The notes beneath the pieces were generated by a model that worked only from the letters and a program-made list of their open reading frames with translations, was not told the origin of the DNA and did not search any database. Both the position numbers and the translations under genes were made by a program. A stretch of 64,000 nucleotides of DNA from Vulcanimicrobiota bacterium (GTDB lineage: Bacteria; Vulcanimicrobiota; Vulcanimicrobiia; Vulcanimicrobiales; Vulcanimicrobiaceae): positions 480,001 through 544,000 of the forward strand of contig CAWGBN010000006.1 in assembly GCA_963820825.1 (NCBI GenBank), in the 5' to 3' direction. Below, one piece after another: positions 480 to 18,007 of the stretch (its first letter is position 1; every line of letters begins with the position of its first letter).

Positions 480-503
480 TTCGATTCCTACACGCTCCCG
501 CCA
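480..503 (+). other. tRNA-Sec (selC)-type 3' fragment, probable att site
   Basis: TTCGATT CCTAC ACGCTCCC G CCA = 7-nt T-loop, 5-nt T-stem strand, 8-nt acceptor strand, G discriminator, CCA (8/5 fold typical of bacterial tRNA-Sec). No matching 5' half (GGGAGCGT) seen upstream, so not a full tRNA. Confidence 0.75.
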
Positions 504-727
504 CCTCCAAATTCTCGCGTATTTGCAAGGATTGTTGCGATGATGGGTGCGCTTCGCTACACCGTTTGCTTCGGTTTTCTTCGAAAAATCCGATTGGCAT
601 TTGCACACTCCCTCCAACTCCGGGTCGCGGTTGGGCTGCTTTCTCATCGGACACCTTCCTTTTGCGTATTAGGGTGTCCAGCTCCCGACGGGGTCACTTC
701 GCGGTCCGCGGCGCGGCAGGACCGAGG

Positions 728-760
728 AAAAAGGGGGCCGTGCACAACGCACGGCCCCTT
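728..760 (-). terminator. Rho-independent terminator after lipoprotein gene
   Basis: Stem GGGGCCGTGC/GCACGGCCCC with an A-run on + (U-run on -), just downstream of the 802..1902 gene. Confidence 0.75.
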
Positions 761-801
761 AATTGAATGGTCTGCAGATGCGTGAGTTTAGCGTTTGCGC
801 C

Positions 802-1902
802 CTACGGAACGAGCACTGGGGTAACGGCCACGCTGCTGTATGAGTTGCTGGGTACCCCTATGATGCTCTTTTTCGGTGCACCACCTGCCGGATAGGCATA
901 CTCACTTGCTGTCTCGCTGCCCGACGTGGCCTGGTAGAGCAACCAAAGGCCGCGGCCTGAGGCCTGGAAGGTAAAGGCTCCGCCATAATGCGAGACGAGC
1001 GAAGTAGTCGAGATTGGACTGCCGAGTGAGCCTCCCTTCGGCGGATTGTAGGTATCGATCACCGCGGTAGGATTTGACCCATCTAGAATAGCGATCCGAC
1101 CAGCCCCGTCAACTTCAATGCCACCGGCGTATTGGATCGTATTGTTGATTGTGAGCGTCCTGACTCTCTTCGCATTGCAGCCGCCGTCAATTTTGCCGAA
1201 TGTCGTTTTGCCCGAGAGGGAACTGTAGACGTAAAGATTTCCCTTGCCGTCGAATCCGCCAACAGCCACGCCATTTGGAAAAGCCTTCGTGCCTTGGGCA
1301 ACTACTGTAGCGCATGGCGTTGTCGAACCGGCGGCGTAGAACATGACACCCTCGCCGCACTGGCTGCCGGACAGAATAGTACAGGTATCTACGGCAACGG
1401 TGCCTTGCCGCGAAACGGCGATGTTGCCGGGGTATCGGCCTGGCTGAAACGTCAACTTTGGCCCGTTTGTGTAAGGGGGCGCGTAGACCGTCACGTTATC
1501 GGCGAAATAATCTACAACATAGAGGTCGCCCGCCGTATCAGTCGCGAGCTCACCTGCAGATTGAAAACCACTCACTTGACCGACCATCTTGTTCTTGCCG
1601 CCTTGCAGAAAGATGTCGACGTTTGCTCCATCGTCTGCCAGGAAGACGAGCGGCTTGCCGACGGCTCCGGGCTCCATGAAGCTCGGCGTTGTCACGCCGT
1701 GACGGGGAACGATGCCTCCGTGCATCGCCAGGAAACTGTTGAGCCGGCCATTTTGAAAGGCTGGTCTTTGGGTGGACGGGCTCCAGGCGGCTGATTGCGC
1801 AAGAGGCGTTGGGGCCATTTGGGAACTGCCTCCGCAACCGGCCAGCGCTGTCAGTGCAATGGACGTGAGGAACGCGTAATCCGCTACTTTATAAATTCGC
1901 AT
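802..1902 (-). CDS. Secreted lipoprotein, beta-propeller/NHL-like repeats
   Basis: Start reassigned to MRIYKVADY (AGGAG RBS upstream); hydrophobic signal with lipobox LAGC; repeated GxLYV-type beta strands; paralog of 8334..9443. Confidence 0.75.
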   Translation of the reverse strand: MRIYKVADYAFLTSIALTALAGCGGSSQMAPTPLAQSAAWSPSTQRPAFQNGRLNSFLAMHGGIVPRHGVTTPSFMEPGAVGKPLVFLADDGANVDIFLQGGKNKMVGQVSGFQSAGELATDTAGDLYVVDYFADNVTVYAPPYTNGPKLTFQPGRYPGNIAVSRQGTVAVDTCTILSGSQCGEGVMFYAAGSTTPCATVVAQGTKAFPNGVAVGGFDGKGNLYVYSSLSGKTTFGKIDGGCNAKRVRTLTINNTIQYAGGIEVDGAGRIAILDGSNPTAVIDTYNPPKGGSLGSPISTTSLVSHYGGAFTFQASGRGLWLLYQATSGSETASEYAYPAGGAPKKSIIGVPSNSYSSVAVTPVLVP

Positions 1903-1984
1903 GATGAGGTCTCCTCTGAAGTCGAGCAAGGGCGTAGACTCTTGATCCCATCCTGCTCCCGCGGAGGGAAGAGGTCCAGGGACA

Positions 1985-2005
1985 CTCGTACAGATTATTC
2001 GGACA
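1985..2005. promoter_or_regulatory. Candidate operator: 8-bp direct repeat at 13-bp spacing in divergent promoter
   Basis: Minus strand TGTCCGAA-TAATC-TGTACGAG; matches TGTACGAA-TAACT-TGTACGAA at 7884-7904. Confidence 0.45.
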
Positions 2006-2029
2006 GTTCGACCGCCGATTGGAGGGTGG

Positions 2030-4570
2030 ATGGAGGCTGCCGGTCGACCTCGCTTCGGAGCGCTGCTGCGGCAGTTTCGTCTCGATGCGGGGATGACGCA
2101 GCAAGAACTCGCCGAGCGGGCGAATTTGAGCGCAGATGCGGTCAGCACGCTTGAGCGAGGGGCTCGAACGCGGCCCTATCGCGAGACGATCGTTCTGCTG
2201 GGGCGGGCCCTGGATTTGTCGCCGGAGCGTGAGGCGCTCCTGGCGAGCGCCGTTGGCATCGCCCATCCACCGCGCCGGCGCAGGGAGGCGCTCGAACCCA
2301 TCGCTATTGCGGATCGTTCGCCCCGAGCCGCAAGCGACGCCGGAGCCACAATCTCCCACAGCAGCTGACTTCCTTCGTTGGGCGGGACCACGAGGTCGCC
2401 GAGATTGCAGCGCTCCTGCGCGAGCACCGACTCGTCACCGTAGTCGGAGCCGGTGGAGTCGGTAAGACGCGCGTCGCCGTGCAAACTGGCAGCGACCTAG
2501 TCGACGGCAGTCCGGACGGCGTGTGGATTGTCGACCTTGCCCCGCTTGCGGATCAAACACTTTTGGCGAGCGCGGTTTTAGCGGTCCTGCAGCATTCCGC
2601 AACAACTGGATCTGCCCTAGACGTTGTCGTCGCGTACCTCAAGACGCGCCGCCTCCTACTTATTTTAGACAACTGCGAGCACCTGGTCGTTGCGGCTCGC
2701 GAGATGGCGACTACTATCATCGGGTTGTGCCCAAACGTGCGCATCCTAGCGACGAGCCGCGAGGCGTTGGACGCGCCCGGTGAGCGCGTCTATCGGTTGC
2801 CGTCCCTGGCGGTTCCACCCGATTCGCGTGCGAGTGCACAAGACGCACTGCGCTATGCAGCGGTGGCCCTCTTCGTTGACCGGGCGCATGCCGTCAACTC
2901 CAGCTTTGCGCTCGTCGACGACAACGCGCCGGATGTCAGCGAGATCTGCCGGCACCTAGACGGCATTCCGCTGGCCATCGAGTTGGCCGCCGCTCGCGTG
3001 AAGGTGCTCGCACCGCGTCAGATCGAGCGGCGGCTCGACCAACGCTTCCGATTGCTTACCGGCGGAGACTCGCGTGCCTTGCCGAGGCATCAGACGATGA
3101 CGGCTCTTATCGACTGGAGCTACGACCTCCTGACGGCGCGCGAGCAGAGGTTCTTTGAGTGGCTCTCGGTTTTCGCGGGTGACAGTACGCTGGAGGCGGT
3201 CGACGGCCGTCTGTGCGGCCGATGACGAAGACGATGTCGCGGTGATAGACCTCATCGCGTCGCTCGTGACGAAGTCGTTGCTGGTTGCCGAGTTGGCCGG
3301 CAATGAGCAGCGCTATTGGCTCTTAGAATCATCGCGGCAGTACGCGCGAGACAAGCTGATCGCGCGCGGCGAGCAGGATGATTTCGCACGACGTCATGCG
3401 ATCTTCTATGTGGAACTGGCAGAGCGACGGGAACGCGAGTGGGACACGATTCCCGATCATGCGTGGCTTCCGCAGGCGACAGTCGAATTGGAGAACTGGC
3501 GGGCAGCGCTGGAGTGGGCACTCGCAAGGAGAGGCGACGTAACTTTGGGACAGCGTATGGCTGCCGTACGCGCCGTTATGTGGCGCAGCTTTACGCTGGC
3601 CGAAGGGCGGCGCTGGGTGCGAGCCGCGATGGAACTGGTCCTAGAAGACACGCCGTTCCTTCTTACCGCGCAACTGGAACATAGTGAAGCTGAAGGCGCC
3701 CGTCGATTCGGCGACTTTCAGATGGCATTCACCAAGGCTGAGAGCGCATTGTCGCGATTTTGCAAGCTTGGTGACGCGAGGGGAATCGCTGAGACTCAAA
3801 GTCTAGCCGGCGCGATGCTCTCCGTTCTGGGAAGGCCAGGGGAGGCAGAGCCTCTGCTCCGTGAAGCTTTAGAGGCCGCGGATACAATCGGTGACTGCCG
3901 CTTGAGGGCTAGCACCCTGTTCCGATTGGGACTCGTACGAAACGAAGTTGCTGACTACGCCGGCGCAGAAGTCTATTTCACCGAAGCACTTGAACTTGCA
4001 AAAGCGCTCGGCGCCACGATCATAAGCATCTCGGTGCGCATCGCGCTGGCTCAAAACGAGCACTTTACGGGAAACGCCGAAAAGGCGCTGCAGCTCATTG
4101 AGGATGTGCTGGCAGACTATCGCTCGCTGAACGCCTCAGGAGCGGCGATCAGTGCAGCCTATGCTCTGACGGACAGGGCTACATATCTCATCGCGCTGGG
4201 TCGATACGACGAGGCACGAGTACAAGCCAATAACGCACTGACGGTTGGCCGCGAGGGTCAGCTCGTTTTCGTAATCGCCAGATCGCTGCAGCAGCTTGCA
4301 GTGCTGGCGTTGCTCGGAGCTCAGGTCGAACATGTACCCGCGGCAGCGAGACACGCGGGAGCCGCTCGGCTCTTCGGCTTCGTCCAAGGTCGCCTTACTA
4401 CATTGGGATCACTGGAGGATCTGGAGCGAGACTACTACATAAGCGCCCTCGCGCTGCTACGCGACACCGTTGGTGCCGAAAAACTTACTAAGATGATGGC
4501 CACGGGCGCGACGATGACCGAAGATGAGGCGGTCGCGCAAGCGCACGCGCTCGAAGCAACTTCAGCTTAG
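2030..4570 (+). pseudogene. XRE-HTH / NTPase (NB-ARC-like) / TPR regulator, split by about three frameshifts
   Basis: HTH FGALLRQFRLDAGMTQQELAERA, Walker A GAGGVGKT, LLLILDNCEH, GIPLAIELAA, TPR-like C-terminus. Pieces lie in ORFs 2030..2368, 2136..2465, 2479..3225 and 3155..4570 and are colinear with the intact paralog at 5324..7858. Shifts near 2297, 2345 and 3205 could be assembly errors. Confidence 0.8.
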
Positions 4571-4685
4571 TTCATTGGTCTTCGCTGCTTCTATCGTCGG
4601 TACGCGGGAGCAGCCGGAAGCAAGAACGGCGAAAAGCTCTTTACTTTGCTTGCGTTTTCACCGATTCGACCAGTCTTAGTCTAAC

Positions 4686-5009
4686 AACGGTGTAGCAGTG
4701 TATCGGAAGACCACGAGCTCGTAGCTAGTGCAAACGACTTGTTCCTAAAGGCGGAGCGTCTCACTACACCGTTTACTACACAGAATCGGCCAAAAGCGGC
4801 CTGCATTCTATTGGCTTTACCAGCCCTATGCTCGAAATTGCCGGTACAATCAAGGACTTTCGAGGCTCAGAGGGTAGTGGCGGGGACGTTAGGAGAACGT
4901 CCTACACGCTCCCGCCAGGTCAAAACACTCCCTCCACTTAGCGATTTTCGCCTTATTCTACGCGGGTTTGCGGCGGGCGATGCTTTTCACTACACCGTTT
5001 GCTACACAG
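4686..5009 (+). repeat. att-like junction repeat, copy 1
   Basis: Inverted arm AACGGTGTAG (4686), CTACACCGTTTACTACACAG (4764), hairpin TGGCGGGGACGTTAGG-AGAACGT-CCTACACGCTCCCGCCA (4878-4917), CTACACCGTTTGCTACACAG (4990). Confidence 0.85.
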
Positions 5010-5323
5010 ATATGGGATCGGTAGGCGCTCGCGCTAGAAGGCATTGCGGAAGACCCCAGCGTCCGATTGTAGCGGCTCAGTGACGGCGAACCCGATTGGC
5101 GTTAAGAAATACGACTTACGGGGGAGCGGCGCGCCGCGCGTTGACAATCGATTGATTTAACGTTCTGCGATTGATCGCATAGCTCCGCACCGGCGCAAAC
5201 AGCGATGTCGCGCCGATCCTGCGTACCGGCGGCTCCAATACGGAACTAGAGCCTTACCGCGGCATCGCCGTTTTTTAGCTGCGGCGCAGCGCGATGTGAT
5301 TGCGAAATTCGTATAGTGTGCTG

Positions 5324-7858
5324 TCATTCAAGCGCGCGCGCTTGGTCGATCGCCTCATCTTCGGACATCGTCGCGCCAGCCGCCATTAAACGCGCGAGCT
5401 CATCATCACTGATCGCTTCTCGAAGCGTGGCCAGCGCGCGATCGCGCTCCTGTGGTATGAAGAACACCTCCGGGATTTCCAATTCAGTAAAGCGAGCGGC
5501 GACGAAACCTAAGAGCCGCGCGGCGCCGGAAAAGCGCTCAGAGGAGACCTGCCCCTCGGTCGGTGGCGAAAACACCGTGACCAAGGCAAGATGCAGTAAC
5601 GAGCCGGCGACCAGCACGCCGATCCGGAGGTCACGTGCAAGTTCGAGCGCTTCGTGTGCACGCGCCCGCGCCTCATCATATCGGCCCAGCACAATAAGGT
5701 ACTGCGAAATGCTGGCGATCATATTCGGGATCTTGGGTGCCGCTGACCAGTGCAGCGACCGAAGAGCTGTGACCGCGTCAGTCATGAGCCGTAGCGCTGC
5801 TTCATAGCTGCCGGCGTCGGCCTCGTTGTCCGCAAGAGATGCCGCAATCGAAGCTGCAAGAATCTCGGCACCCACCATCTTGGCTAGGCCGAGCGCTTCG
5901 GTATAGTATGCTCGCGCCCCGGTGATATCACGACGGCGGAGTGTTGCCAAAAGCCCCATTCTCCGCAAAACGAGAGCGGCCAGCCGCCGATCGCCCAAGG
6001 TGCGGGCTGTCGCGAGAGCTTCGTGCAGCAGCGGCTCGGCTTCCGCAAACCTTTCCAGAATAACAAGCGACGAAGATGCCAAGCCCTGCACCTGAGCGAT
6101 ACCTCGGACGTCATCGACTTCGCGATACCGCACAAGAGCTCGCTCGGCCGCCGCCAACGCGGCGCGGGCATTAGAAGACTCCGAGGCAACTTCAGCATAA
6201 GCATGGTATAGGCGCGCCATGAGACGAAGCGGAGTCCCTTCATCGGCCGATGCGAGTGCCACTTCCACCCAACGTCTCGCCTCGGGTAGCGAGAGGCTGT
6301 ACAATAGTACCATCCGCAAAGTTGCGAGGCGTTGTCCAAGGACGACGTCGCCCCGTTTACTGAGCGCCCAGGCAAGCACAGCACGCCAGTTATCTGATTC
6401 TGCTTGGACCATCGGGAGCCACTCCCGGTCGGGTGTCGCGTTCCACGCGAGTTCGAGCCGTTCGGCTAGTTCGAGGTACGTGAGCGCATGACGCGATGTT
6501 ATTCGCTCCTGCTCGCCGCACGCAATCAGCTTGTCCCGGGCGTACTGCCGCGATGATTCTAGGAGTCTGTAGCGCTGTTCGTCACTAGCCAACTCGGCAA
6601 CTAGCAATGACTTCGTCACGAGCGATGTAATGAGGTCTATCACCGCAATATCGTCTTCGTCATCGGCCGCGCAGACTGCCGTTATCGCCTCCAGCGAACA
6701 GTCGCCCGCGAAGACCGAGAGCGTTTCAAAGAACTTCTGCTCGCGCGCCGTCAAGAGGTCGTAGCTCCAGTCAATAAGGGCGGTCATCGTCTGGTGGCGC
6801 GGCAAGGCACGCGAATCTCCGCCGGTGAGTAAGTGGAAGCGCTGGTCGAGCCGCCGCGCGATCTGACGCGGTGCGAGCACCTTTACGCGAGCGGCGGCCA
6901 ACTCAATGGCGAGCGGAATGCCGTCTAGGCGGCGGCAGATCTCGTTAACGTCCGGCGCGTTGTCGTCGACGAGCGCAAAGCTGCGATTGACGGCATGCGC
7001 ACGTTCAACGAACAGAGTCACCGCTCCGTAGCGCAGTGCGTCTTGTGCAGTCCCAGGCGAATCGGGTGGAACCGCCATGGACGGCAACCGATAGACGCGC
7101 TCACCTGGCTCGTCCAACGCCTCCCGGCTCGTCGTTAGGATGCGCACGTGTGGGCAAAACTCGATGATAGTAGTCGCCACCTCGCGAGCGGCACTGATCA
7201 CATGCTCGCAGTTATCTAAAATGAGTAAGAGGCGTCGCGTCTTGAGGTACGCGACGACAACGTCTAAGGCAGACCCAGTCGTTGCGGGATGCTGCAGGGC
7301 TGCTAAGACTGCGCTCGCCACAAGTGTTTGATCCGCCATTGGAGCCAGGTCGACTAGCCAGACACCGTCCAAAAAACCGTCCAGTAGGGCGCTCCCTATC
7401 TGCAGCGCAACACGACTTTTGCCGATTCCGCCGGCGCCGAAAATCGTTACGAGTCGGTGATCGCGCAAAAGCGCTGCGATCGCCGCGACCTCGCGCTCTC
7501 GCCCAACGAACGAGCTCAAGTGAGCAGAGAGATTGTGCTTTGCCGTCGCTTGCGCGTCGGCACGCACGATCCGTACCAGCGATGCCTTCAACGCCTCGCT
7601 GCTCCCCCGACGGCGCGGCGGATGTGGGATGCCGGCGGCGCTTTCCAGCAGCGCCGTGCGCTCGGGCGGCAACTTAAGCGCGCGGCTGAGCAAAATCACG
7701 GTCTCCCGATGAGGCCGCGTTCGAGCGCCACGCTCGAGCGTGCTGATTGCCTCCATGCTCAGCCTTGCTCGCTCGGCGAGTTCTTGCTGTGTGATGCCGG
7801 CCTCGAGGCGAAACTGCCTCAGCAGTGCCCCGAAGTCAGCTGGGCTGGAAGCCTCCAT
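5324..7858 (-). CDS. XRE-HTH / NTPase (NB-ARC-like) / TPR transcriptional regulator
   Basis: Start MEASSPADFGALLRQFR; HTH; SFVGRERE; Walker A GAGGIGKS; LLLILDNCEH; GIPLAIELAA; TPR-like helices. Confidence 0.9.
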   Translation of the reverse strand: MEASSPADFGALLRQFRLEAGITQQELAERARLSMEAISTLERGARTRPHRETVILLSRALKLPPERTALLESAAGIPHPPRRRGSSEALKASLVRIVRADAQATAKHNLSAHLSSFVGREREVAAIAALLRDHRLVTIFGAGGIGKSRVALQIGSALLDGFLDGVWLVDLAPMADQTLVASAVLAALQHPATTGSALDVVVAYLKTRRLLLILDNCEHVISAAREVATTIIEFCPHVRILTTSREALDEPGERVYRLPSMAVPPDSPGTAQDALRYGAVTLFVERAHAVNRSFALVDDNAPDVNEICRRLDGIPLAIELAAARVKVLAPRQIARRLDQRFHLLTGGDSRALPRHQTMTALIDWSYDLLTAREQKFFETLSVFAGDCSLEAITAVCAADDEDDIAVIDLITSLVTKSLLVAELASDEQRYRLLESSRQYARDKLIACGEQERITSRHALTYLELAERLELAWNATPDREWLPMVQAESDNWRAVLAWALSKRGDVVLGQRLATLRMVLLYSLSLPEARRWVEVALASADEGTPLRLMARLYHAYAEVASESSNARAALAAAERALVRYREVDDVRGIAQVQGLASSSLVILERFAEAEPLLHEALATARTLGDRRLAALVLRRMGLLATLRRRDITGARAYYTEALGLAKMVGAEILAASIAASLADNEADAGSYEAALRLMTDAVTALRSLHWSAAPKIPNMIASISQYLIVLGRYDEARARAHEALELARDLRIGVLVAGSLLHLALVTVFSPPTEGQVSSERFSGAARLLGFVAARFTELEIPEVFFIPQERDRALATLREAISDDELARLMAAGATMSEDEAIDQARALE

Positions 7859-7883
7859 CCCCCTCCATCGGGTAGCGCCGAAT

Positions 7884-7904
7884 TGTACGAATAACTTGTA
7901 CGAA
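7884..7904. promoter_or_regulatory. Candidate operator: perfect TGTACGAA direct repeat
   Basis: TGTACGAA-TAACT-TGTACGAA, 26 bp upstream of the regulator start codon. Confidence 0.5.
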
Positions 7905-8114
7905 CGTACCTGGACCTCTTCGCCCCAAGGGGAGAAAATGATTGCGCGGGTCTGCCGCCCCACGATGTCGCCGGTCCCGCCGCCCGAGAAGCGCGCGATT
8001 CTCAAGCCTAGCGCGAACCTTGAGCGCGTTACGACTTCACTAAGGAGAGCTCAACATGAGTATTTCTAACGCGGTGCGCCATGCGTTGAACACATAATCC
8101 CTTCGACGCTGAGC

Positions 8115-8200
8115 TTAGCCCGCTCGCCGAGCTGCTCTTGCGTCATCCCTGCGTCGGCAAAACTGTCTGAGCAGAGCGCCGAAGTGGAGTCGACTGACCG
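8115..8200 (-). pseudogene. Truncated XRE-HTH 5' remnant
   Basis: Encodes LHFGALLRQF, then shifts; DNA resembles 7770-7840, the 5' end of the adjacent regulator. Confidence 0.55.
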
Positions 8201-8333
8201 TTTCCGTCCCGCTCCCGGTTGTCGTCCAAACTGTGCAGGTAAAATGTACGGGTGTGCCTGGACCGATTCCCTCTACCGGCGCAGGATGGATCTGACAAGA
8301 ACCCTCTTCCTCTACTCTTACGGGAGAGTCAAC

Positions 8334-9443
8334 ATGTGTACTTCTAAAGCGGCGAGTCACGCGCTCATCGCATCAATTGCACTAGCAGCACCGGCCGGTT
8401 GCAGCGGAGGTTCCGCAATGGCCCCCACGCCTCTTGCGCAATCGAGCGCCGGGAGCCCGTCCCTCCAAGGGCCACCTTTTACAAATGGAAGGCTCAACAG
8501 TTTCAGGACGATGCGCGGAGGCATCGTTCCCGGTCATGGCACGACAAGGCCGAGCTTCTTTAGTCCCGACGCTAAAGGGAAGCCGCTCATCTTCATCGCG
8601 GATTTGCAGAACAACGTCGTGAACATCTATCTGCAGGCCCGCAAGAATAAGATGGTCGGCCAAATTACGGGTCTCAAGGCGCCAGTGGCCCTCACGACCG
8701 ACGCCTCAAGGAATCTATACGTTGGGGAGGAGACCGGAGATGTACTCGTGTACGCGCCTCCGTACACGGCGTCACCAAAGCTGGTACTCGACGACAGCAA
8801 CGATGATCCTTACGCCATTTCCGTTTCACGTCAGGGAATCGTGGCCGTAGCCAACGTCTGCTCATTAACGCCGAGCGGGCAGTGTAATATCAATAGCGGA
8901 AGTGTCATCTTCTACGCCAAGAATGCCACCAAGGCTTGCGCCACTGTTGCCGATCCGACGACCTTAGGATACTACAACGGTGACGCCTTTGCCGACAATG
9001 GAAGGCTTTACATCACGGGATACCTCCCGGCGGGCTCGGATAGCTATTATGCCATAGGCGAAATTAAGGGCGGTTGCCAAGCGAAGCGGATCACGCTGCT
9101 CGCGAAGAGCGGGAGGGTTGCTTACGGCACCATCAAGATAAACAAGGCGGGCCAAATCGCCGTGATTTATGAAGGCACTAGCCCGGAGGTTTTGTACACC
9201 TATGATCCTCCCAAACACGGCTCCCTCGGAAACCCCGTCTCGAGCACCCCTTTGGTCGGTACGACGGCGGCGAGCTTCACATTTCTTGCGTCAGGATCCG
9301 ACGTTTATACGGCCGACTATTCCAACAGCGGCATCGGATCGAGTAGCGAGTATGACTATCCAATCGGTGGGATGGCGGAAAAGACTATCGCCGTTGGCGG
9401 ACTCCCAGTTGATGTGGCGGTCACGCCGGCGCTCGTTCCGTAG
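8334..9443 (+). CDS. Secreted lipoprotein, beta-propeller/NHL-like repeats
   Basis: Start MCTSKAASHAL after GGAG; signal ending PAGC; shares MAPTPLAQS, GKPLIF, KNKMVGQ, VYAPPYT and VAVTPxLVP with 802..1902. Confidence 0.75.
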   Translation: MCTSKAASHALIASIALAAPAGCSGGSAMAPTPLAQSSAGSPSLQGPPFTNGRLNSFRTMRGGIVPGHGTTRPSFFSPDAKGKPLIFIADLQNNVVNIYLQARKNKMVGQITGLKAPVALTTDASRNLYVGEETGDVLVYAPPYTASPKLVLDDSNDDPYAISVSRQGIVAVANVCSLTPSGQCNINSGSVIFYAKNATKACATVADPTTLGYYNGDAFADNGRLYITGYLPAGSDSYYAIGEIKGGCQAKRITLLAKSGRVAYGTIKINKAGQIAVIYEGTSPEVLYTYDPPKHGSLGNPVSSTPLVGTTAASFTFLASGSDVYTADYSNSGIGSSSEYDYPIGGMAEKTIAVGGLPVDVAVTPALVP

Positions 9444-9486
9444 GGCGCAAACGCTAAAACGCACGCATCTTCGGACTGCTTCGATT

Positions 9487-9518: not shown

Positions 9519-9654
9519 CCGATCGCCACGCTCCGCCCGGGCGTTTGAAGCGCGAATCTATCCAAGGTAGTTTCTGGCAGTCTCTGTCGGATTAGGCCAG
9601 CGGCTTGGCCTCCTTGCTCACGGCAATTGCGAAACTGTTTTTAGCAGCACTTTC

Positions 9655-9910: not shown

Positions 9911-10112
9911 GCTTCTCTTTCGCTATTTACACGGTCGATGGCGTCGTCGTACTAAAGCAAGGTGGTCACGATCTTTCCGTAGTTCATGAGGCCTCCCGAT
10001 GCGGTCCGACGATGCCGCGGGCAATCAAGTACATGCGAGTATTGACAACGATAAAGCGCCAGATTTGGTACGGCCAAAAGCGCTCCATAAAGTGGGACTG
10101 CATGAGTCTCTC

Positions 10113-11543
10113 CTATTCCGGGATCAGCTGCCAGCCCGGCCGGGCTTGCAGCTTCCACATAAACGCATCGTGCAGCAATCGCTTAGTCCAGGCGCCCGCC
10201 AACCCGACGTCGAGTTCGCTCAAGCCAAGGTCGCGCCCGTACTCGGGATAGCGCTCGTAGTCGCGCGCAACCGGCACCATGATGATCGAGGCCGCCGAAC
10301 CAGTGAGCAGCGACTGTCCCATCGACGCAATGCAGGCGGCCGGCATCGCGGACAGCGGCTCGCGATGGCTCGGCTCGCCGCCGCGCGCCTGGTCGAGCAC
10401 GTTGAGCGCGACCGTGCGCCCGATGATGCCGGAGGCCATGCCGGTGCGCGGTGCCGTCGCGGTGATCGGCGAGCCGCTCGAGCCCTTGACCGATCTCGAA
10501 AGAGGATGCGGCGGTGCGAACGCGATGCCGGCGGCGTAGATGCGATCGTCATATGGGGATCGATAGATTGCAGGCCAATCGCGCCCGCGGTACTCGGGAT
10601 ACGTCTTCGCGGTATAGTCGGCATCCACGGTCATCAGGCCGTTGCCCTGCGTCATCTTGGGCGTCACGTCTTCACCCCCGACGCCGACGTACCTCAGCGG
10701 GATGCCGCGGAACTGCGGAATAAGCATTGCGAAATCGAACTCCAGCCACGCTGGTTCTTCGGTAGGCGTTTCGTAGAGTAGGCGGCCGGATTCGACATGC
10801 TTGACGCTCGCGGGAAGTATGGTGCGGATCTTCTCTTCGAAAAAGAGACCGCCGATGACGTCCGCGCCGCGAATGACGCGGTCGCCTTTGCGCGCTTCGA
10901 TTCCGTCGACGCCGAAATCGCCCGGCTGGGATTCGTTCGAGAGCCAGATCAAGTCGGCACGTTCGCGCAAGCCGCGCCGGCGCAAGTCGTGATTCACGTT
11001 CATGATGTATTCGAATGCGGCTCCCTCGCAGGTTGCGAGGGGGTGGCCCGTGCCAACGACGATCCGGGCACGCTCGCCCTTTTCGAGCTTTTTTACGATG
11101 TCGCGATATGCTTCGCCCGTGCGGGTCGCGTGCTCGACCGAACAGACGCTTTCCGAGTTCCCGGCCGAAGGTCCGAGTCCCGGGGTTCCCTCGAAGTTCA
11201 AGTACGGGCCGGTCGCGTTGATCAAAAAATCGTAGTCGAGGGTAGAGTGCTCTCCCGAGTCGAGTGCTACGGCGACGCGCCGCTGCGCGAGGTCGACCTC
11301 TTGTGCACGGCCCGCGACGTACTTGATCCCCAGTTTTGCGTATACCTCATCGAGCGCGAAGTAACATCGATCCGGCGACATCGTCCCGACGCCGACCCAG
11401 ATCAGGCTCGGGAACCAGGTGAACCGGTTTCGCGGCGAGACGACGGTGACGTCGACCTCGTCGAGGTGTTTGGAGAGATGCAACGCCGCGGTGTGCCCGG
11501 CAAAGCCGGCGCCTAATACGAGCACGCGTGATTTCATAATCAT
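10113..11543 (-). CDS. sqr: Sulfide:quinone oxidoreductase-like FAD-dependent oxidoreductase
   Basis: GAGFAG FAD motif, FPSLIWVGVG, YDFLINATG, TCEGAAFEY, PRTGMAS and ACIASMG (candidate redox cysteines). Confidence 0.75.
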   Translation of the reverse strand: MIMKSRVLVLGAGFAGHTAALHLSKHLDEVDVTVVSPRNRFTWFPSLIWVGVGTMSPDRCYFALDEVYAKLGIKYVAGRAQEVDLAQRRVAVALDSGEHSTLDYDFLINATGPYLNFEGTPGLGPSAGNSESVCSVEHATRTGEAYRDIVKKLEKGERARIVVGTGHPLATCEGAAFEYIMNVNHDLRRRGLRERADLIWLSNESQPGDFGVDGIEARKGDRVIRGADVIGGLFFEEKIRTILPASVKHVESGRLLYETPTEEPAWLEFDFAMLIPQFRGIPLRYVGVGGEDVTPKMTQGNGLMTVDADYTAKTYPEYRGRDWPAIYRSPYDDRIYAAGIAFAPPHPLSRSVKGSSGSPITATAPRTGMASGIIGRTVALNVLDQARGGEPSHREPLSAMPAACIASMGQSLLTGSAASIIMVPVARDYERYPEYGRDLGLSELDVGLAGAWTKRLLHDAFMWKLQARPGWQLIPE

Positions 11544-12845
11544 ACCCCCTTGTCGCCAATGCCGGCGACGAAGCGCAGGTGCGCATCAGCGATGCGCAGA
11601 TCCGCCTGCGCGCGGATGAATTGTTGGCGGGCCGACGCGTTACGAGCTTGCGCATCGCGCAGCTCGAGCTGTGTGCCGACCTGTCCCCGGTAGCGAACCT
11701 CCGCGAGACGCTCGTCCTCGGCGGCGGACGTGGCAAGATCGCGGGCGGCGGCGACGCGCTCGGCGGCGGTCTGCAACTCCACGTAGCCTTCCCGCACGTC
11801 CAGCTCGGCTCGAGCGCGTAGCTCGTCGTACTCTGCCTGTGCCTGTGCGAGCGCGTCGCGCGCCGCGGCAACGCGCGCGGCCGTCGCGCCACCGTCGTAG
11901 AGGCGCCAGACCCCTTGCAGCGCGATGACGAATTGATTCGGTATAACCCGGCTGCACCGCCGGTTGGACGTTACCGTCGCTGACGGAGATGCCGACCGAC
12001 GGCCCATTTTCCGCCTGCGCTTCGCGGATGCTGGCCGCGGCAGCGTCGAGCGCGGCGCGAGCGGCTTGCAATTCGCCACGCTGCGCGATCGCCGCTGCCA
12101 CCAGACCCTCCACGCCGGGCATCGGAAGCCTCGTTTCCAGAGTGTCCGATGTTACGATGCGCGCCGTCGCGGGAAGGCCGAGCAGCGTGGCAAGACGTTC
12201 GTGCGCGATGGTGACCGCGCCGTGCGCATCGATAGCCCGGACGCGAAGGTCGGCGAGCTCGGTACGCGCCTCGAGCGCATCGAAGCGCGGCACCGTTCCG
12301 GCCGAGAAGCGCGCCCGCGTATCGTCGTACGAGCGCTGTCCGTCGGCGACCGCGGCGTCGGCCGCCTGGGATGCGGCCATGGCCGCGAGGTCGTCGACGT
12401 ACGCCTGCGTAACGCTCGCGACCAGTCCGCCGCGGGCTTCGCGTTCGGCGGCCGCCGCTTCCGCGTACCGTGCGTCGGCCTGGCCGGCGCGCGCGGCCCC
12501 TTCGCCGTCGTCGAAAAAAGTGTAGCGCGCGGTTACGAGCGGCAAGTTGGTCGCGTTGGGACCGAAAGGCAGTGGGCCGAACGGCGTTGAGAGTTGCGCA
12601 ACCGGATCCGAGGAGACGTACGAATCGCTGACGCTCAGAGTCGGCCCGCGGTCGCCGCGAGCGGCGCGCACGTCATCGCCGCGCACGCGGACCGCCGCAA
12701 TCGCCGCACGATATCCCGGATTGTGGGCTAGCGCCGTATCGATCGCTTCATCGAGCGAGAGCGTTAACGACTGCTCGGCGCGGACCGGCGCAGACATGAG
12801 GAGCAGCGCGAAGACCGCCGCGGCAAGGGAGAAGAGTCTATGCAT
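11540..12845 (-). CDS. TolC-family outer membrane efflux protein (frameshift near 11945)
   Basis: Signal peptide, LSLDEAIDTALAHNP, C-terminal RYRGQVGTQLELRDAQ; split between ORFs 11640..12875 and 11540..12079. Confidence 0.8.
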
Positions 12846-15800
12846 GCCCAGCCTCCTCGACAAGCGGCGACGCAAAGCGGGCGTAGAGCAAGGGGATCGC
12901 CAGCACGGACAAGACCGCAGACGAACTCATCCCGAAGACGAGAGCCCACGCGAGCCCGCTCCAGACGGGGTCGGAAGCAATTACGACCGACGAGAGTACC
13001 CCCGCCGCGGCGGTCATGAAGATCGGCCGCGTGCGGGTGGTTGCAGCGGCGACCAGCGCATCTCGACGGCTCAGGCCCAGCCTGAGCTGATCCTCAATGA
13101 ACTCTATGAGGATGATCGAGTTGCGTACGACGATGCCGACCAGCGCGATCAGGCCGATCATCGCCGTCGCCGAAAAATAGATGCCGAACGGCGCCAGCAG
13201 CGCGAAGCCGGGCATGATGCCGATCATCGCGAGCGGCACCGCCGCCAAGACGATCAGTGGCGTGCGGAACGACCGAAAGCGCGCGACTAGCAGCAGGTAG
13301 ATGAGCAGAAATGCGAGCGCCATCGCGCGCCCGAGGTCGGCGAAGACGGTGAGCGTCATATCCCATTCGCCGTCCCAGGCTATGCTGTAGCCGGGCGGCA
13401 GAGTCAGCCGCGAGAGCGCGATCATCGCCTCGATAACGGCGTAAGTAGAGCTGCGTCCGGCGAGTTCCGCGCCGACGTAAGTTGCGTCACGATAGTCGTC
13501 CCGCTGCAGCGTCGGGGATTGTTGGGTGACCGCGACCCGCGCGATCTCTCCCAGGGGCGTGCTCCCTCCATTCCCCGCCGGTATGCGAATCTGCGACAGC
13601 GACGCTGGATCGCGGCGGAACTCGGATGCGAAACGAACGACGACGTCGACCGGGCGTACGTCGACCGGCGCGTGAATCTCCGATACCGTCGATCCGGCAA
13701 GCGCTATACCGAGGGTCTGTACGACTTCGGCGACGGAGACGCCTGAAAGCGCAGCTTTCACCGGATCGACCTCGACGTGGACCGAAGCCGGCAACGGCTT
13801 GTCGCTTGGATCGACGTCGACGACGCCGTGCTCGCCCTCGAGAATCGATTGGATGCGGGACGCAATTGCTCGGCGGATATCCGGATCGGGGCCGAAGACC
13901 TTGGCGAAGATCGTGTTGCGCACGGGCGGTCCGGGCGGGGTTTGCAGGACGCGCAGCGCCGCACCGAAGCGAGCTGCAACGGTCTGCAGTCGCGGACGCA
14001 GCGTTCGAACGAGGATTGCCGACTGCACGTGTCGCCGGTCCTTCGGCACGAGGTTCACGCGAATATCGGCGAGGTTCGGCGCGTTTCGGAAGAGGGTCCC
14101 CTGAAAGAGGCTGGAGAGATCGGGAACCGAGTTCGTGCCCACGAAAATCTCGTAGTTGCTCACCTCCGGCGTCGCTGCCAATTGCGCTCCGACGGCTTCC
14201 GCGATTGCGGTCGTCGCGGCGACGGTGCTCCAGGGCGGCGCATCGATGGTAACAAGGATTGTCGTTTCGTTGGCGCGCGGTAGCATGCGGAACTGCACGA
14301 GCTGCAGCGCCGGCAACGCAAGTGCGATCGCGAAGGCTAGCGCAAGAGCAACGAGAAAGAGCGAGCCGGCCTGCGGATTGTCCAAAAGACCTGCCAGCCG
14401 GTCACGGACATACGCGACCCACCAAGTCGTCGCGTGGGACGTTTTCAGCGTGCGCTTCCGCAGCAGATGGTAGGTTGCCCACGGCGTTACGGCGACGGCG
14501 ATGAAGAGCGAGGCGAGCATCGCTACCGGAACGTTAATCGGAATCGGCCGCATATACGGACCCATCATGCCGGTCACGAAGAGCATCGGCAGGAACGAAA
14601 GCACTACCGTGATCGTCGCAAGCGCAGTCGGACTAGCGATCTCGCCCACCGCAGCCACGGTCACCGCATCGCGCGGCGCGTTGGGCTTGTTCGCGTAGTG
14701 CCGGTGAATGTTCTCGACCATGACGATGGCGTCGTCGACCAGCAGGCCGAGCGCGAGAATCAGAGCAAAAAGCGTAATTCGGTTGATCGTTTGATGGGCG
14801 AGCATCCCCACGCCGAGGGTCACGAAGAGCGTGAGAGGAATCGCCGATGCAACCACGATCGCCTGGCGCCATCCAAGAACGAGTAAGAGCAATGCGACGA
14901 TGCCAATCGCCTCGACCAACCGTTCGATCAGCTCGTTCACCGCAAGGTTGGCCTTCTCGCCGTAGTCGCGCGTTACGCTCACCGTCACTCCGGGTGGAAG
15001 CTGCGCGGCGCGTACCGTCCCGATGATCCTTTCGGCGATATCAACGGCGTTCGTTCCGGGCTTCTTTGCGATCGCGATGCTGACTGCCGGCTCGTTTCCA
15101 AAAAGCGACTCCGTTTCTGGTGGCGCAATGGTCGCGCGGACGCTCGCGACGTCGCGCAGCGCGACGGGCATGCCGCCGTGAACGCCCACGATCGTCGCGG
15201 CGACATCTTCCGCGTTCAGAAAAGGAGCGCCGCTCCTGACGCTGAGCTCGCGTTCCGTCGAGCGCAGCGGCCCCGCCGGCGAGACGACGTCTGCCGTCCC
15301 AATTGCGCGGGCAACCTGCAGCGGGGAAAGCGCGTAGGCATCCAATCGCACCGGATCGAGATCGACCGCGACTTCGTGCGGCCGATCACCGTAGACCGCG
15401 ACGCTCGAAACGCCGGGCAAAGGTTGGATCGAGGTGATGAGCCGCTGCGCCGCATCCCCCAACTGACCGCGGTCGTAACGGGGGCCGTGCAGTGTCAGGA
15501 CGACGATCGGAATGTCGTCGGTGCTCATCGGCACGATCACGGGCTGCGACGCTCCCGGCGGCAAATCCGTAAGGTGCGCGAAGACCTGATCGTACAGATC
15601 GACAAAAGCCTTCGTGGGATCGTCGCCAACGTGGAAAAGCACGGTCAAGTACGAAGTGTCCTGCGTTGACGTTGCGTAGACGTGCTCGACTGCCGGGAAC
15701 CGCGCGTAGGACGCGCTCGCCTCGTTCGGTGACGGACCGCTGCACTTCGCGCGCGTCGGCACCTGGATAGTGCGTTACGATGATCGCTGCAGGGCGCACG

Positions 15801-15937
15801 ATTTGCGGATTTTCTTCACGTGGCGTCGCGAGGATCGCGAGCAGTCCCAGCGCGACGATTGCTATGACGAGCGTTGGTGTCAGTTTCGAGGTGAGAAAAT
15901 AACGGGCGATTCGCGCCGCCCAGTTTAGGTGTTCCAT
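12838..15937 (-). CDS. AcrB/RND efflux permease (frameshift near 15695)
   Basis: PREENPQI, YPGADA, GLLVDDAIVMVENI, GIVVRNSIILIEF, RTRPIFMT; N-terminus in ORF 15386..15937, remainder in 12838..15762. Confidence 0.9.
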
Positions 15938-15938
15938 T

Positions 15939-17162
15939 TCACCGGTCGATCGCGATCGTCGCGCCGTCGGTCAAACGTTCGAGATTGGTCGTCGCTACGT
16001 CGCGGTCTGCCGGACGAAGGCCCGTGACTTCGACGTCGTGCATGTCGGCTTTGCCGGTTCGGACCGGCGCGAAGACCGCTTTGCCGCCGGTAATCACGAA
16101 GACCCCGGTTTGACCGTCGCGCGTAACGAGCGCCTCGAGCGGAACCGTCGTGCCGCGCTCGGGCACTCCGCGGAGACGCACGCGCACGAACATGCCAGGT
16201 CGTAGTCCGCGTGTCGCGGGCAGCGCAATGCGCGCCAGCATGGAACGTAGCGCTGGGTCGGCAGGAGAGAGTCCTCGTACCGTACCGATCAGGATTCGAT
16301 CCAGATCGGCGGACTGGACCTCGACGCGACTGCCTTGATGGAGCGCGCCGGCATTTTCCTGCGGTACGGCGACGTCGGCTTCGAGTGTGTCGTCGCTCTG
16401 CACGGCAACGACCGGCGTCCCTGGGCCTACCGCCGTGCCCACATCGGCGAATCGCTCGGTGACGACGCCGTCGAACGGAGCTCGAATTATTCCGTTAGAG
16501 ACCGCAATCGAAGCGGCCTTGGCGGCGGCTCCTGCCTCTGCTGCGGCGTCTGCCGCCGCCGCGCGTTGCGCTTCAGTTTGCGTGGTCACCGCAGAGGCCT
16601 CTCGGAAATCCGCTTCCGACTGGTCGAGCTGTTGACGCGAAATGGCACCCTGCGCGTAAAGCCGCGCCATCCGACGTTGAGTGGCGCGCGCCAATTCCAG
16701 CCGCGCCTCCGTCTGAGCTACGCCAGCCGAGGCCGCAAGGCTCGTTTCGTGCGCGCCGGCGGCGCCGGCAGAGGCTGCGGTAAGTTGAGCGCGATAGGAT
16801 GCGTCGTCGATCGTCGCGATGGGCTGCCCTGCCGTCACGGGGTCTCCCACGCGCACGCGCATCTCGTTAACTCTGCCTGCGACGACCGCTCCCACCTGCG
16901 CGCTCTGCGCAGAGGCGACGCTGCCGGACAGTTCGAGCGTGCTGCCGATGGATCGAATGACGACCGGTGCGGTGTGCACCGGAATAGGTGGCGGCTCGAC
17001 CACTTTTCGCGCGCAACCTCCCGGTGCAAAAGCGGCGGAGAGTCCGAGAATTACCAAGAGGCGACGCAGACGACCCCTCACGACGCCTTGCGCAAGCCCG
17101 CCAGTGCGATGAGGTTCGACATCAAGCACCGGCCTGTCAGTGACTGAAGGAGGTTCGCGCAT
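15939..17162 (-). CDS. RND membrane fusion (periplasmic adaptor) protein
   Basis: GRVNEMRVRVGDPV, GAISRQQLDQ, IRAPFDGVV, LRPGMFVRV; start uncertain (frame stays open to 17312). Confidence 0.85.
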   Translation of the reverse strand: MREPPSVTDRPVLDVEPHRTGGLAQGVVRGRLRRLLVILGLSAAFAPGGCARKVVEPPPIPVHTAPVVIRSIGSTLELSGSVASAQSAQVGAVVAGRVNEMRVRVGDPVTAGQPIATIDDASYRAQLTAASAGAAGAHETSLAASAGVAQTEARLELARATQRRMARLYAQGAISRQQLDQSEADFREASAVTTQTEAQRAAAADAAAEAGAAAKAASIAVSNGIIRAPFDGVVTERFADVGTAVGPGTPVVAVQSDDTLEADVAVPQENAGALHQGSRVEVQSADLDRILIGTVRGLSPADPALRSMLARIALPATRGLRPGMFVRVRLRGVPERGTTVPLEALVTRDGQTGVFVITGGKAVFAPVRTGKADMHDVEVTGLRPADRDVATTNLERLTDGATIAIDR

Positions 17163-17291
17163 ACCATAGATTTCGCGACGGATGCATTGGCCGCGAACCG
17201 GCACACCCGTGATTCCGGCGGCTATTCGCAGCAACCGCCCTGCGGCCCCGGACATAAATCTTGCGAGTCCCATCCGAGGATAGTATATACC

Positions 17292-17307
17292 ATACCCCGT
17301 AGGGTAT
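17292..17307. promoter_or_regulatory. CsoR/CstR-type operator
   Basis: ATACC-CCGTAG-GGTAT inverted repeat with C/G tracts in the divergent promoter next to a CsoR-family gene. Confidence 0.7.
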
Positions 17308-17341
17308 TGCAATAAGCGAAGATAACCCTTACTATGGGCGC

Positions 17342-17662
17342 ATGGCTAAGACCCGCGCGTCGGCGAAACGGCCTTCCACCGAACGCCACCTCGATATCGA
17401 GGACGAGACTGCTACCGACATCATCTTGCGGCTGCGGCGAATCGAAGGGCAGGTGCGCGCAATCGAGCAGATGATTGAGCAGCGCCGTGACTGCCATACG
17501 ATTGCCCAACTGATGGGCGCCGCAAAGGCGGCCCTCGAGCGAGCGACGATCCAGCTCATGACGGCCAGCATGGCTGGTTGCCTATCGGCGGGCCGTAACG
17601 GAGCCTACGATCAGCGCGAACTCGCCAAGCTCACCGATACCTTCGTAAAAATTCTCGGTTAG
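17342..17662 (+). CDS. CsoR/RcnR-family repressor, CstR-like
   Basis: RLRRIEGQVRAIEQM..RDC..; second Cys in SMAGCL with no His at the usual metal-ligand position. Confidence 0.85.
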   Translation: MAKTRASAKRPSTERHLDIEDETATDIILRLRRIEGQVRAIEQMIEQRRDCHTIAQLMGAAKAALERATIQLMTASMAGCLSAGRNGAYDQRELAKLTDTFVKILG

Positions 17663-17814
17663 CTGAGAGGTTAGAGAACAAGAGTCCCAATGTCAGCGCG
17701 ACCGTCGGAAGAAGACCGGCGATCTAACGGATTTCGCGAGACTCACTGGGATTAGAAGTGACCGGACGGGACGCAAGAATGCGGAGACCCGTACAGGAGA
17801 CCGCGCGACCTTGA

Positions 17815-18007
17815 GGTTAGTGCAACGATTTGCTCAAAGATGGAGCGGTTCGCTACACCATTTACTACACAGAATCGGCAAAATTGGATTTCGGCGTTTA
17901 TTGGCAGCCGAAGGCTCTATGCGAAAACGGCCGGTATTATCAGGGACTTTCGAAGCCTAGAGGGTAGTGGCGGGGATGCTAGGAGAACGTCCTACACGCT
18001 CCCGCCA
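17815..18007 (+). repeat. att-like junction repeat, copy 3 (outermost)
   Basis: CTACACCATTTACTACACAG at 17853; TGGCGGGGATGCTAGG-AGAACGT-CCTACACGCTCCCGCCA at 17968-18007. Confidence 0.85.

Follow-up and report, generated by a model that had tools for sequence, protein, structure and literature searches.

An array of integrase-less segments bounded by copies of the tRNA-Sec 3′ end downstream of selC in a Vulcanimicrobiota bacterium

We analysed a 64,000-nt stretch of a Vulcanimicrobiota genome (GenBank assembly GCA_963820825.1; hereafter the window), in which exact copies of the 3′ end of the selenocysteine tRNA (tRNA-Sec) gene, selC, divide the DNA into short segments, each carrying a regulator and cargo genes. 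The window corresponds to G000:C6:480001-544000, where G000 is the source genome, with an assembly of 2.98 Mb in 9 contigs at 85% completeness; G113, G136 and further G numbers denote genomes of the same family, L numbers denote fetched loci, and C numbers denote contigs. The 18-mer TCCTACACGCTCCCGCCA is present in the window in four exact copies, all on the + strand, and the same four are recovered when up to two mismatches are tolerated. No match is found across 100 dinucleotide-preserving shuffles of the window. Pattern search places the copies at 486–503 (repeat 1, part of a 24-nt copy of the selC 3′ end at 480–503 that was delimited by alignment to selC), 4900–4917 (repeat 2), 9893–9910 (repeat 3) and 17990–18007 (repeat 4), with spacings of 4414, 4993 and 8097 bp.

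The repeated sequence is the 3′ end of selC. ARAGORN finds 47 tRNA genes in the whole assembly, among which tRNA-Sec is represented once, at C6:467130-467223 (window −12870 to −12777), with a score of 67.8 bits against Rfam RF01852 (gathering score 47). The assembly contains six exact copies of the 18-mer, compared with none of the reversed control. Five of them are co-oriented on contig C6 within 31 kb, the fifth being the last 18 bases of this sole tRNA-Sec gene, and the sixth lies on the 24.5-kb contig C4. Specifically, the 18-mer comprises the last base of the T-loop, the 3′ half of the T-stem, the 8-nt 3′ acceptor strand, the discriminator and CCA. Identity to selC extends over 24 nt in repeat 1, from the start of the T-loop to CCA, and over 18 nt in repeats 2–4. 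The first-pass annotation, made from the letters of the window, had described four direct copies bounding segments of 4.4, 5.0 and 8.1 kb, and we find both the positions and the segments as described. It had also predicted an intact selC and an integrase gene to the left of the window, which is correct because the sole tRNA-Sec gene lies there, ending 12,777 bases before position 1 in the exact 18-mer, with an integrase gene beside it. A dispersed repeat of the MITE (miniature inverted-repeat transposable element) or REP (repetitive extragenic palindromic) kind, scattered over the genome, was considered and rejected. The core has six copies, mostly clustered, and a probe for the flanking sequence matches the genome five times, four of them in the array; the copies are thus few, co-oriented and clustered instead of scattered in both orientations.

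Reading outward from selC, the locus consists of a 13.3-kb island with an integrase gene (IntA), repeat 1, three integrase-less elements of 4.4, 5.0 and 8.1 kb, and the truncated left end of another island. The IntA island spans C6:467224-480503, so that the window begins inside it. IntA is a 484-residue open reading frame (ORF) directly after selC on the opposite strand and matches Phage_integrase (PF00589) with an E value of 7.4e-23. The island also encodes a serine recombinase, a helix-turn-helix (HTH) protein, a primase/AAA_25 protein (primase-helicase), proC and a LuxR-type regulator; PHROGs gives only generic matches in it, to a DNA invertase and a primase. The direct repeat GGTTGCAnAAnGGTTGCA is found at both ends of the island, at C6:467270 (47 nt after selC) and at window 354, and the right end of the island (1–479, + strand) carries it as the A-type arm repeat GGTTGCAAAATGGTTGCA at 354–371, located by motif search. 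Because both island ends carry this repeat, we assign repeat 1 as the attR of the IntA island, which is probably functional. The integrase predicted beside selC is therefore present, but it belongs to an island of its own, whose ends differ from the arms of the three segments.

Several further features of the IntA island were observed. The IntA ORF (C6:466984-468438, − strand; L012:6984-8438) reads antisense through the left arm and the entire selC before its first stop, and conservation with an 88%-identical relative (L065) stops at about residue 364; the remaining tail may be open merely by chance, in DNA of 64% G+C, or integration may alter the C-terminus of the integrase. About 0.7 kb to the left of the window, at C6:479293-479361 (L012:19293-19361), 23 residues are 78% identical to IntA residues 110–132, and given this second integrase scrap the 13.3-kb island may itself be composite. 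A variant of the island's arm repeat adjoins another integrase beside a tRNA-Arg gene on contig C5: within C5:230474-232034, a 454-residue integrase lies next to tRNA-Arg(cct), with GGTTGCAGTTTGGTTGCA, an arm repeat of the same kind, between them.

Each of the three segments beyond repeat 1 combines a regulator with cargo, with two to six genes per unit on both strands. Segments 1 (504–4917) and 2 (4918–9910) carry the same regulator/cargo pair in inverted order relative to their flanking arms. The regulator of segment 2 (5324–8005, − strand) is an intact protein of 893 residues in which Pfam recognises an HTH_31 domain, an NB-ARC/nSTAND-like NTPase domain and tetratricopeptide repeats (TPR), and its cargo (8184–9443, + strand) is a 419-residue protein that matches no Pfam, NCBIfam or PADLOC family. 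The segment 1 regulator (2030–4570, + strand), with the order HTH, STAND NTPase and TPR by Pfam and comparison, is split into three frames (2030–2395, 2344–3201 and 3203–4555). Its cargo (802–2148, − strand; Pfam scan and protein comparison) is a 448-residue ORF with 47% amino-acid identity to the 419-residue protein, and both cargo proteins may be NHL β-propellers, as suggested by feature likeness in a language-model resource (Atlas). The regulators share 51–82% identity. The two pairs are old paralogues with no recent duplication between them. Reading the cargo as a defence system was also considered and rejected, PADLOC giving mere HTH-level matches for the regulator.

Segment 3 carries an efflux module assigned by Pfam. 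A CsoR/RcnR-type metal-sensing repressor (17342–17662, + strand) diverges from efflux genes that encode, on the − strand, a membrane-fusion protein (HlyD_3/HlyD_D23; 15939–17312), an RND (resistance-nodulation-division) pump of the AcrB family (12838–15937, in two frames, 12838–15762 and 15386–15937) and an outer-membrane efflux protein (11540–12875, in two frames, 11640–12875 and 11540–12079), and an FAD/NAD(P) oxidoreductase follows at 10113–11543 on the same strand. The best NCBIfam match of the oxidoreductase, the selenoprotein subtype of type III sulfide:quinone reductase, scores 57.7 bits against a cut-off of 525 and probably reflects merely the common FAD fold. Broken genes are therefore found in two of the segments, namely the regulator of segment 1, in three frames, and the AcrB and outer-membrane efflux genes of segment 3, in two frames each. 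Assembly error is not the obvious cause of these frameshifts, because all three other full-length AcrB paralogues in G000 are single open frames of 1084–1203 residues.

None of the segments carries a recombinase of its own. Pfam scans of 15 large ORFs and 38 further ORFs of at least 70 residues reveal no recombinase in 504–17989, and neither these scans nor a custom hidden Markov model (HMM) for tyrosine recombinases, built from eight proteins of G000 and its relatives, reveal a relaxase or transposase there. The custom HMM, run on all ORFs of at least 80 residues, finds no tyrosine recombinase in segments 1–3, and tblastn at E values up to 1 gives no match in them to IntA or to IntB, the second integrase of these loci described below. 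The earlier claim that the segments are free of recombinases is thus borne out by three methods; its companion, that they are self-contained regulator-plus-cargo units, holds for the content of all three, with several of their genes broken.

The segments are bounded by conserved arms. Blocks of about 190–260 bp with 79% mutual identity precede repeats 2–4 (4656–4899, 9651–9892 and 17818–17989), a shorter conserved block follows repeats 1 and 2, and the left flank of repeat 1 differs from those of repeats 2–4. The 200-bp repeat that had been proposed for the sites is accordingly present at copies 2–4 and absent from copy 1, whose identity to selC covers only 24 nt. Since each core in an array of integrated elements separates the right end of one element, on its left, from the left end of the next, we interpret the blocks as the two arms of an attachment site (attP) of a second element family, which we call family B. 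All three segments end in a B right arm, segments 1 and 2 start with a B left arm, and the segments belong to this family. The motif CTACACCGTTTRCTACAC is found in the segment arms at window 557, 4764, 4990, 9756 and 17853, and the rest of the genome holds two matches with three mismatches only; the ends of the IntA island, unlike the segment arms, carry GGTTGCAnAAnGGTTGCA.

Specifically, the left arm of segment 1 (504–725) is a B-family variant with CTACACCGTTTGCTTCGG at 557–574 and CACTCCCTCCA at 606–616, and the same flank follows junctions in L041 and L121, while its right arm (4656–4899) carries CTACACCGTTTACTACAC at 4764–4781. The left arm of segment 2 (4918–5010) is of a type that we call L1, with 7 nt, a second core ACACTCCCTCCA at 4925–4936 and then CTACACCGTTTGCTACAC at 4990–5007. 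The right arms of segment 2 (9651–9892) and segment 3 (17818–17989) carry the arm motif at 9756–9773 and 17853–17870, respectively. All of these arms read on the + strand, and the right arms were delimited by alignment and motif search. The CTACAC-type direct repeats within the arms are, from their position, probably arm-type sites at which an integrase would bind, and the crossover can be narrowed down no further than to the 18 nt of identity in family B and the 24 nt in family A. Left arms vary across genomes. One variant, L2, lies directly after selC, and IntB or parts of its gene accompany it in every case (5 of 5 such arms). In another, L1, the L2-like sequence is preceded by 7 nt and then a degenerate 12-nt repeat of the core. 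This additional copy of the final 12 nt of the tRNA is ACACTCCCTCCA in the window and a perfect ACGCTCCCGCCA in some relatives, and could be the scar of an older insertion or a second binding site.

The right arm ends in a 40-nt imperfect palindrome (4878–4917 in segment 1, with the same structure ending at 9910 and 18007), identified by alignment and folding, with the sequence TGGCGGGGACGYTAGGAG-AAC-CTCCTACACGCTCCCGCCA and the tRNA 3′ end as its right half. When 36 right arms are aligned, at least 160 nt prove to be conserved, with hardly any variation in the final 45 nt, the core included. Folded as single-stranded DNA, the palindrome gives −10.9 to −14.6 kcal/mol (z −2.7 to −5.1), with similar values for both strands of the one copy that was folded on both, and the terminal hairpin is the only structure that RNAalifold predicts from the 36 copies. 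Its pairs are invariant and none of them shows a compensatory change among the 36 copies, so covariation neither backs nor refutes the hairpin; symmetric protein-binding sites in duplex DNA account for the palindrome equally well. An XerCD/dif-like reading of the palindrome was also considered and set aside, as its sequence does not appear to resemble the dif consensus. Stable folding of the last 40 nt on either strand and strong sequence conservation could also be expected if the 190–260 bp element encoded a structured RNA such as a tRNA-like minihelix, or served as a regulatory site, with its likeness to selC a case of functional mimicry. We regard this as very improbable: no Rfam family reaches its gathering score in the window and none matches 4550–5100 at E values up to 1, ARAGORN finds no tRNA gene in the window, the hairpin pairs lack compensatory changes, and the element is nearly confined to the downstream side of selC, in the same orientation.

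The relationships among right arms bear on how the array grew. On a maximum-likelihood tree of 36 arms and 173 columns, whose support is weak, the four G000 arms, of which the C4 arm is a long branch, need four changes. Constraining the G000 arms, a group named beforehand, to be monophyletic costs 46.7 log-likelihood units (approximately unbiased (AU) test, p = 0.0017), and the nearest relatives of arms 2, 3 and 4 sit in other genomes, at 86%, 88% and 78% identity. Local duplication or unequal crossing-over of a selC-proximal block, without site-specific recombination, would account for clustered, co-oriented repeats and for the paralogous cargo of segments 1 and 2. The G000 arms are not a clade, and arms 2–4 have their nearest relatives elsewhere, which argues against such duplication: the right arms in the window are 79% alike, and arms 2 and 3 are closer to those of other genomes. 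Moreover, the paralogous cargo is inverted and its proteins share only 47–82% identity, the boundary of the repeat falls precisely on the end of the tRNA, and relatives have integrases at the expected place. We therefore give local duplication hardly any credence.

Comparable arrays are present in related genomes. Of 201 genomes sampled from the family, 13 (G000 among them) match a 391-nt probe that runs from right arm through core to left arm, and five of the seven further genomes in the genus are among these 13. When one genome per species was scanned for the exact arm motif, it turned up in many contigs titled Candidatus Eremiobacteraeota, Vulcanimicrobiota or Ca. Cybelea, with chance matches elsewhere. 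In the relatives' loci, an intact selC is followed by a B-type left arm, and the right arm plus core recurs one to several times downstream, with at least six junctions over 50 kb on one 1.76-Mb contig; the arm element lies almost exclusively downstream of selC and is co-oriented with it. The cargo between cores differs by genome (G113, G136, G182, G197 and other loci) and includes BKACE/FMN reductase/CMD genes, a cyclase-STAND-TPR protein, Fic, DUF2071 and a beta-lactamase fold, so that fixed content between the sites, which would have spoken against insertion, is not what relatives show. The regulator-plus-propeller module recurs at different positions in the selC arrays of L122, L076/L073, L054 and L081, and near a junction in L097. 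The best nucleotide identity between the window cargo and the fetched loci is 67–74%, and recent transfer is therefore not visible.

Most of the intervals in these arrays lack an integrase. No recombinase family is found at E ≤ 1e-5 in the 68 scanned of 125 ORFs from relatives' loci. Among 24 core-to-core intervals that are fully covered in the merged loci, 22 have no match to a tyrosine recombinase, one contains IntA (the G000 island) and one contains weak fragments (26–36 bits); four duplicate loci were dropped from this count, and an incompletely covered 32-kb island that bears IntB was left out.

The second integrase, IntB, is a tyrosine recombinase of 410–485 residues that follows selC and a B-type left arm on the strand facing selC in other Eremiobacterota genomes (L117 and L056). 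The L117 and L056 proteins are 92% identical to each other and 28–31% identical to IntA. In L056 and L117, the order is selC, L2 arm and IntB, with a right arm plus core 32 kb downstream on the L117/L120 contig, and the IntB gene is in pieces or frameshifted in L080, L096 and L047. A B left-arm motif is present at 28 of 67 junctions that have at least 1.5 kb of downstream sequence; a full integrase match follows two of these 28 arms, fragments follow five, and no match follows 21. We did not find IntB in G000, in an assembly that is 85% complete, where the best tblastn matches are other integrases with 28–31% identity. An IntB-like gene at E ≤ 1e-70 is present in only two of the 13 genomes that carry arms, with 37% identity in one and, interrupted by four stops, 53% identity in the other; these counts are a floor, as the search used a stricter first look.

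Integrases were also observed in other places around selC. On one metagenome contig, selC is immediately preceded, on its own strand, by the gene for a 378-residue tyrosine recombinase (L175:13248-14585) that shares 34% identity with the C5 integrase and 32% with IntA, and an integrase fragment (L125:4702-5457) occupies the same place in a second locus. An integrase at the head of the array would be an integron-like layout, which is found only in these two loci. B-type junctions, or selC followed by an L2 arm and pieces of IntB, also occur on contigs titled Bryobacterales (Acidobacteriota) and Acidimicrobiaceae (L052/L088 and L062), which represent either cross-phylum transfer or a mislabelled or misbinned record.

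The array continues past 18007, because both the flank and an integrase stub indicate that a fifth element starts there. The left arm of a further island family (18008–18047, + strand) consists of CAACTCGGAA twice in tandem followed by CAATCGG, with similar flanks in L110, L079 and L181. A 17-codon remnant of an integrase C-terminus (18060–18110, − strand) lies 53 nt beyond repeat 4 and shares 88% identity with the C-terminal end of the fragmentary integrase found after selC in L181 (E = 0.003 genome-wide), in the expected place and on the expected strand. The integrase gene of this fifth element has been almost entirely deleted.

We consider it likely that the window is the distal part of a tandem array at selC that grew by accretion and then decayed, leaving integrase-less elements that resemble cis-mobilizable elements (CIMEs). 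Integrative elements would have inserted serially at the 3′ end of selC, the attP of each newcomer recombining either with the end of the tRNA gene itself or with a copy already in place, and each insertion would have rebuilt the tRNA and displaced older elements outward. The repeats would then be recombination scars, and the three segments would be family-B elements that retain attachment sites on both sides, have lost their own recombination genes as opposed to never having had them, and hold partly decaying cargo. Consistent with this scheme, an intact tRNA gene stands at one end of co-oriented 3′-end repeats and content varies among relatives. The segments have flanks akin to those of IntB-bearing elements, for segment 3 in the right arm only, and have no genes for integration, excision or transfer. 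A tRNA-proximal integrase gene is present in the IntA island, absent from segments 1–3 and reduced to the 17-codon stub after repeat 4.

Several points weigh against accretion and decay. Because no IntB remnant was found in segments 1–3, the loss of their integrase genes is something that we infer and do not see. About 20 L1-type junctions (AGTCAAA.. flank, with at least 1.5 kb downstream) have no strong integrase match and two weak ones (26 and 29 bits); random deletion is expected to leave more stubs after L1 arms, and the pattern fits elements that travel without an integrase. The four perfect cores and the near-invariant last 45 nt in 36 copies could mean that the sites have been kept functional. 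Furthermore, the sample of intervals is biased to short ones, the loci having been fetched with 8–10 kb flanks around the arm motif, and assembly error could explain part of the frameshifts, the AcrB control being one gene family.

These points lead to an alternative in which the segments are cassettes born without an integrase. The attP of the excised circle would run from right arm through core to L1 arm, and an integrase acting in trans would insert and remove the cassettes. The helper could be IntB, from an element that is co-resident or visiting, or else perhaps IntA, and the system would be integron-like in function, not in ancestry. Such cassettes agree with the 22 of 24 intervals free of a tyrosine recombinase, with strong integrase matches never following L1 arms and IntB or its pieces standing at all five selC-adjacent L2 arms, and with a right arm of which at least 160 nt are conserved among 36 copies drawn from many genomes and which ends in a folding palindrome. 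They also agree with the recurrence of the regulator-plus-propeller module at differing array positions in other genomes, and with arms of one genome that are not each other's closest relatives. However, IntB was not found in the G000 assembly, 11 of the 13 arm-carrying genomes lack an IntB-like gene at the floor threshold given above, and the junction was found in no circular form and, as a 39-nt pattern, in no viral contig (0 matches). The hairpin, with its invariant pairs, has no covariation support, the cargo is decaying and at most 67–74% identical in nucleotides to the fetched loci, and the modules of segments 1 and 2 have opposite orientations relative to the arms, something that mobility through the attachment sites alone would not predict. 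We hold birth without an integrase to be possible for these segments, if unlikely. Its extension, that selC is a lineage-wide capture site in Eremiobacterota for cassettes that never had an integrase, with an attP formed by a right arm of about 250 bp, the 40-nt palindrome that includes the tRNA-Sec 3′ end and an L1 arm, and with an IntB-type helper in trans, strikes us as slightly more doubtful still; the array would then be a functional counterpart of an integron, assembled from regulated multi-gene units by a lambda-type tyrosine recombinase.

The segments may have been captured in trans, and movement in trans is favoured by L1 arms without integrase stubs behind them and by a strongly conserved junction. 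Accretion and decay explains integrase-less remnants bounded by attachment sites at least as well, and decay is favoured by the broken cargo, the IntB pseudogenes, the missing IntB in most array genomes and the lack of a recent-transfer signal.

Other features of the window and the relatives were recorded beside the array. To the right of repeat 4, a PD-(D/E)XK protein with weak Cas4-like PADLOC matches precedes an IS3-type transposase (19654–20828, + strand; Pfam), which consists of an HTH_Tnp_1 ORF (19654–20007) and an rve ORF (20004–20828). Farther right, window 23606–40075 carries a run of large ORFs on the − strand (509, 511, 284, 252, 304, 1080, 783, 760, 636 and 706 residues) in which only M15 peptidase and SLT transglycosylase domains are recognised and PHROGs adds nothing beyond SLT; the run may be part of the truncated island or an unrelated envelope/secretion cluster. 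A viral origin of the array was considered and rejected, the 39-nt junction pattern matching no viral contig and PHROGs giving generic matches only. The sixth core copy, on C4 (L013:10771-10788, − strand; L013 = C4:12001-24488), is flanked by an L1-like left arm and by no more than about 45 nt of right arm, and is followed by genes for a cupin, an FAD monooxygenase, an epimerase, a 1297-residue nSTAND1-TPR protein and a TIR-domain protein. G113 also has a similar cupin after its third junction, where the core copy carries two mismatches, and 848 bp beside the C4 junction are 90% identical to C8:652537-653382. We considered contig C4 as a circular or excised form and rejected this, as its ends overlap neither each other nor the array. 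In G136:C1:43383-71437 (L198/L044/L199), from a genome of the same genus, a 24.5-kb stretch lies between two direct repeats of 3.55 kb that are 99% identical and carry an integrase each; it holds a stray B-type junction together with ThiF-like, nucleotidyltransferase and Shedu SduA_C-domain genes. This locus was dropped as a lead to a helper integrase: its B-type junction lies inside the 24.5 kb beside a tRNA-Cys gene, away from the integrase-proximal border.

The locus documents the turnover of accessory genes in an uncultured soil phylum (Eremiobacterota/Vulcanimicrobiota), where a single tRNA gene gathers regulated modules such as STAND-type regulators with propeller proteins and metal-type efflux with its repressor. 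The conserved arms offer a sequence handle for finding such arrays and delimiting flexible genes in metagenome-assembled genomes of the group, and, if mobilisation in trans were true, the array would be a natural case of helper-dependent multi-gene cassettes outside the integron family. Our literature search on Eremiobacterota together with islands or integrases found no paper naming Eremiobacterota, which does not prove that there is none.

Related arrangements are known from other bacteria. In Enterobacteriaceae, genomic and pathogenicity islands with tyrosine integrases use selC as their attachment site, and a directly repeated copy of the selC 3′ end marks the far border; these islands are usually single and large, with the integrase beside selC. 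Here, in contrast, an array of several small integrase-less units follows an integrase-bearing island. A close parallel is provided by the CIMEs of the ICESt1/ICESt3 family of Streptococcus thermophilus, described in PMC5704250 as elements flanked by attL and attR that have lost their integration and transfer genes. They arise by integration, decay and new integration at an attachment site (PMC5704250). The arrangement at selC is as in that account, the remnants being lined up behind the target gene together with an element that bears an integrase (PMC5704250). The present array differs from streptococcal CIMEs in its target, selC, in its host, an uncultured phylum, and in having up to three such elements in a row, with more in relatives. 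In addition, the resident integrase belongs to another family than the arms of the remnants, no conjugation genes are seen, and mobilisation is only putative.

Tandem islands with about 20-bp repeats of the gene's 3′ end and strain-specific content are also described at ssrA of Dehalococcoides, some of them without an integration module and suggested by the authors to be CIMEs (PMC3146451). Both systems have tandem islands after a single-copy small-RNA gene and extra conservation just upstream of the repeat (PMC3146451). According to the same paper, the Dehalococcoides islands use the serine recombinase DsiB and a transfer-messenger RNA (tmRNA) target, whereas the array studied here involves at least two families of tyrosine recombinases, tRNA-Sec and a much longer arm (at least 160 nt). 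The tycheposons of Prochlorococcus, as portrayed in bioRxiv 10.1101/2020.12.28.424599, integrate serially at one tRNA and push older elements inward, and they share with the selC array partial tRNAs between elements and remnants with fragmented integrases. The integrase and element families of tycheposons are others, and their excision has been demonstrated, whereas that of the selC elements is putative; the latter show no capsid-like modules or modules like those of phage-inducible chromosomal islands (PICIs).

Finally, the array resembles an integron in its ordered, co-oriented units without a recombinase of their own, each ending in an imperfect palindrome, and the first-pass annotation had proposed an integron-style array of multi-gene cassettes. 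Taken as membership of the integrons, that proposal fails. Against two integron-integrase models with cut-offs of 265 and 435 bits, IntA scores 28.6 and 22.9 bits and IntB 44.2 and 29.2 bits; neither is IntI, and an integrase at a fixed head of the array is absent from most genomes. The junction is conserved in sequence, where attC sites are conserved in structure, and the units hold several genes with regulators on both strands, unlike single promoterless ORFs. An integron in the strict sense is therefore not supported, on integrase scores as well as on cassette and attC criteria. Set beside these systems, the locus is a well-resolved and unusually tidy example of a known process, an ordinary kind of hot spot, not a new one.

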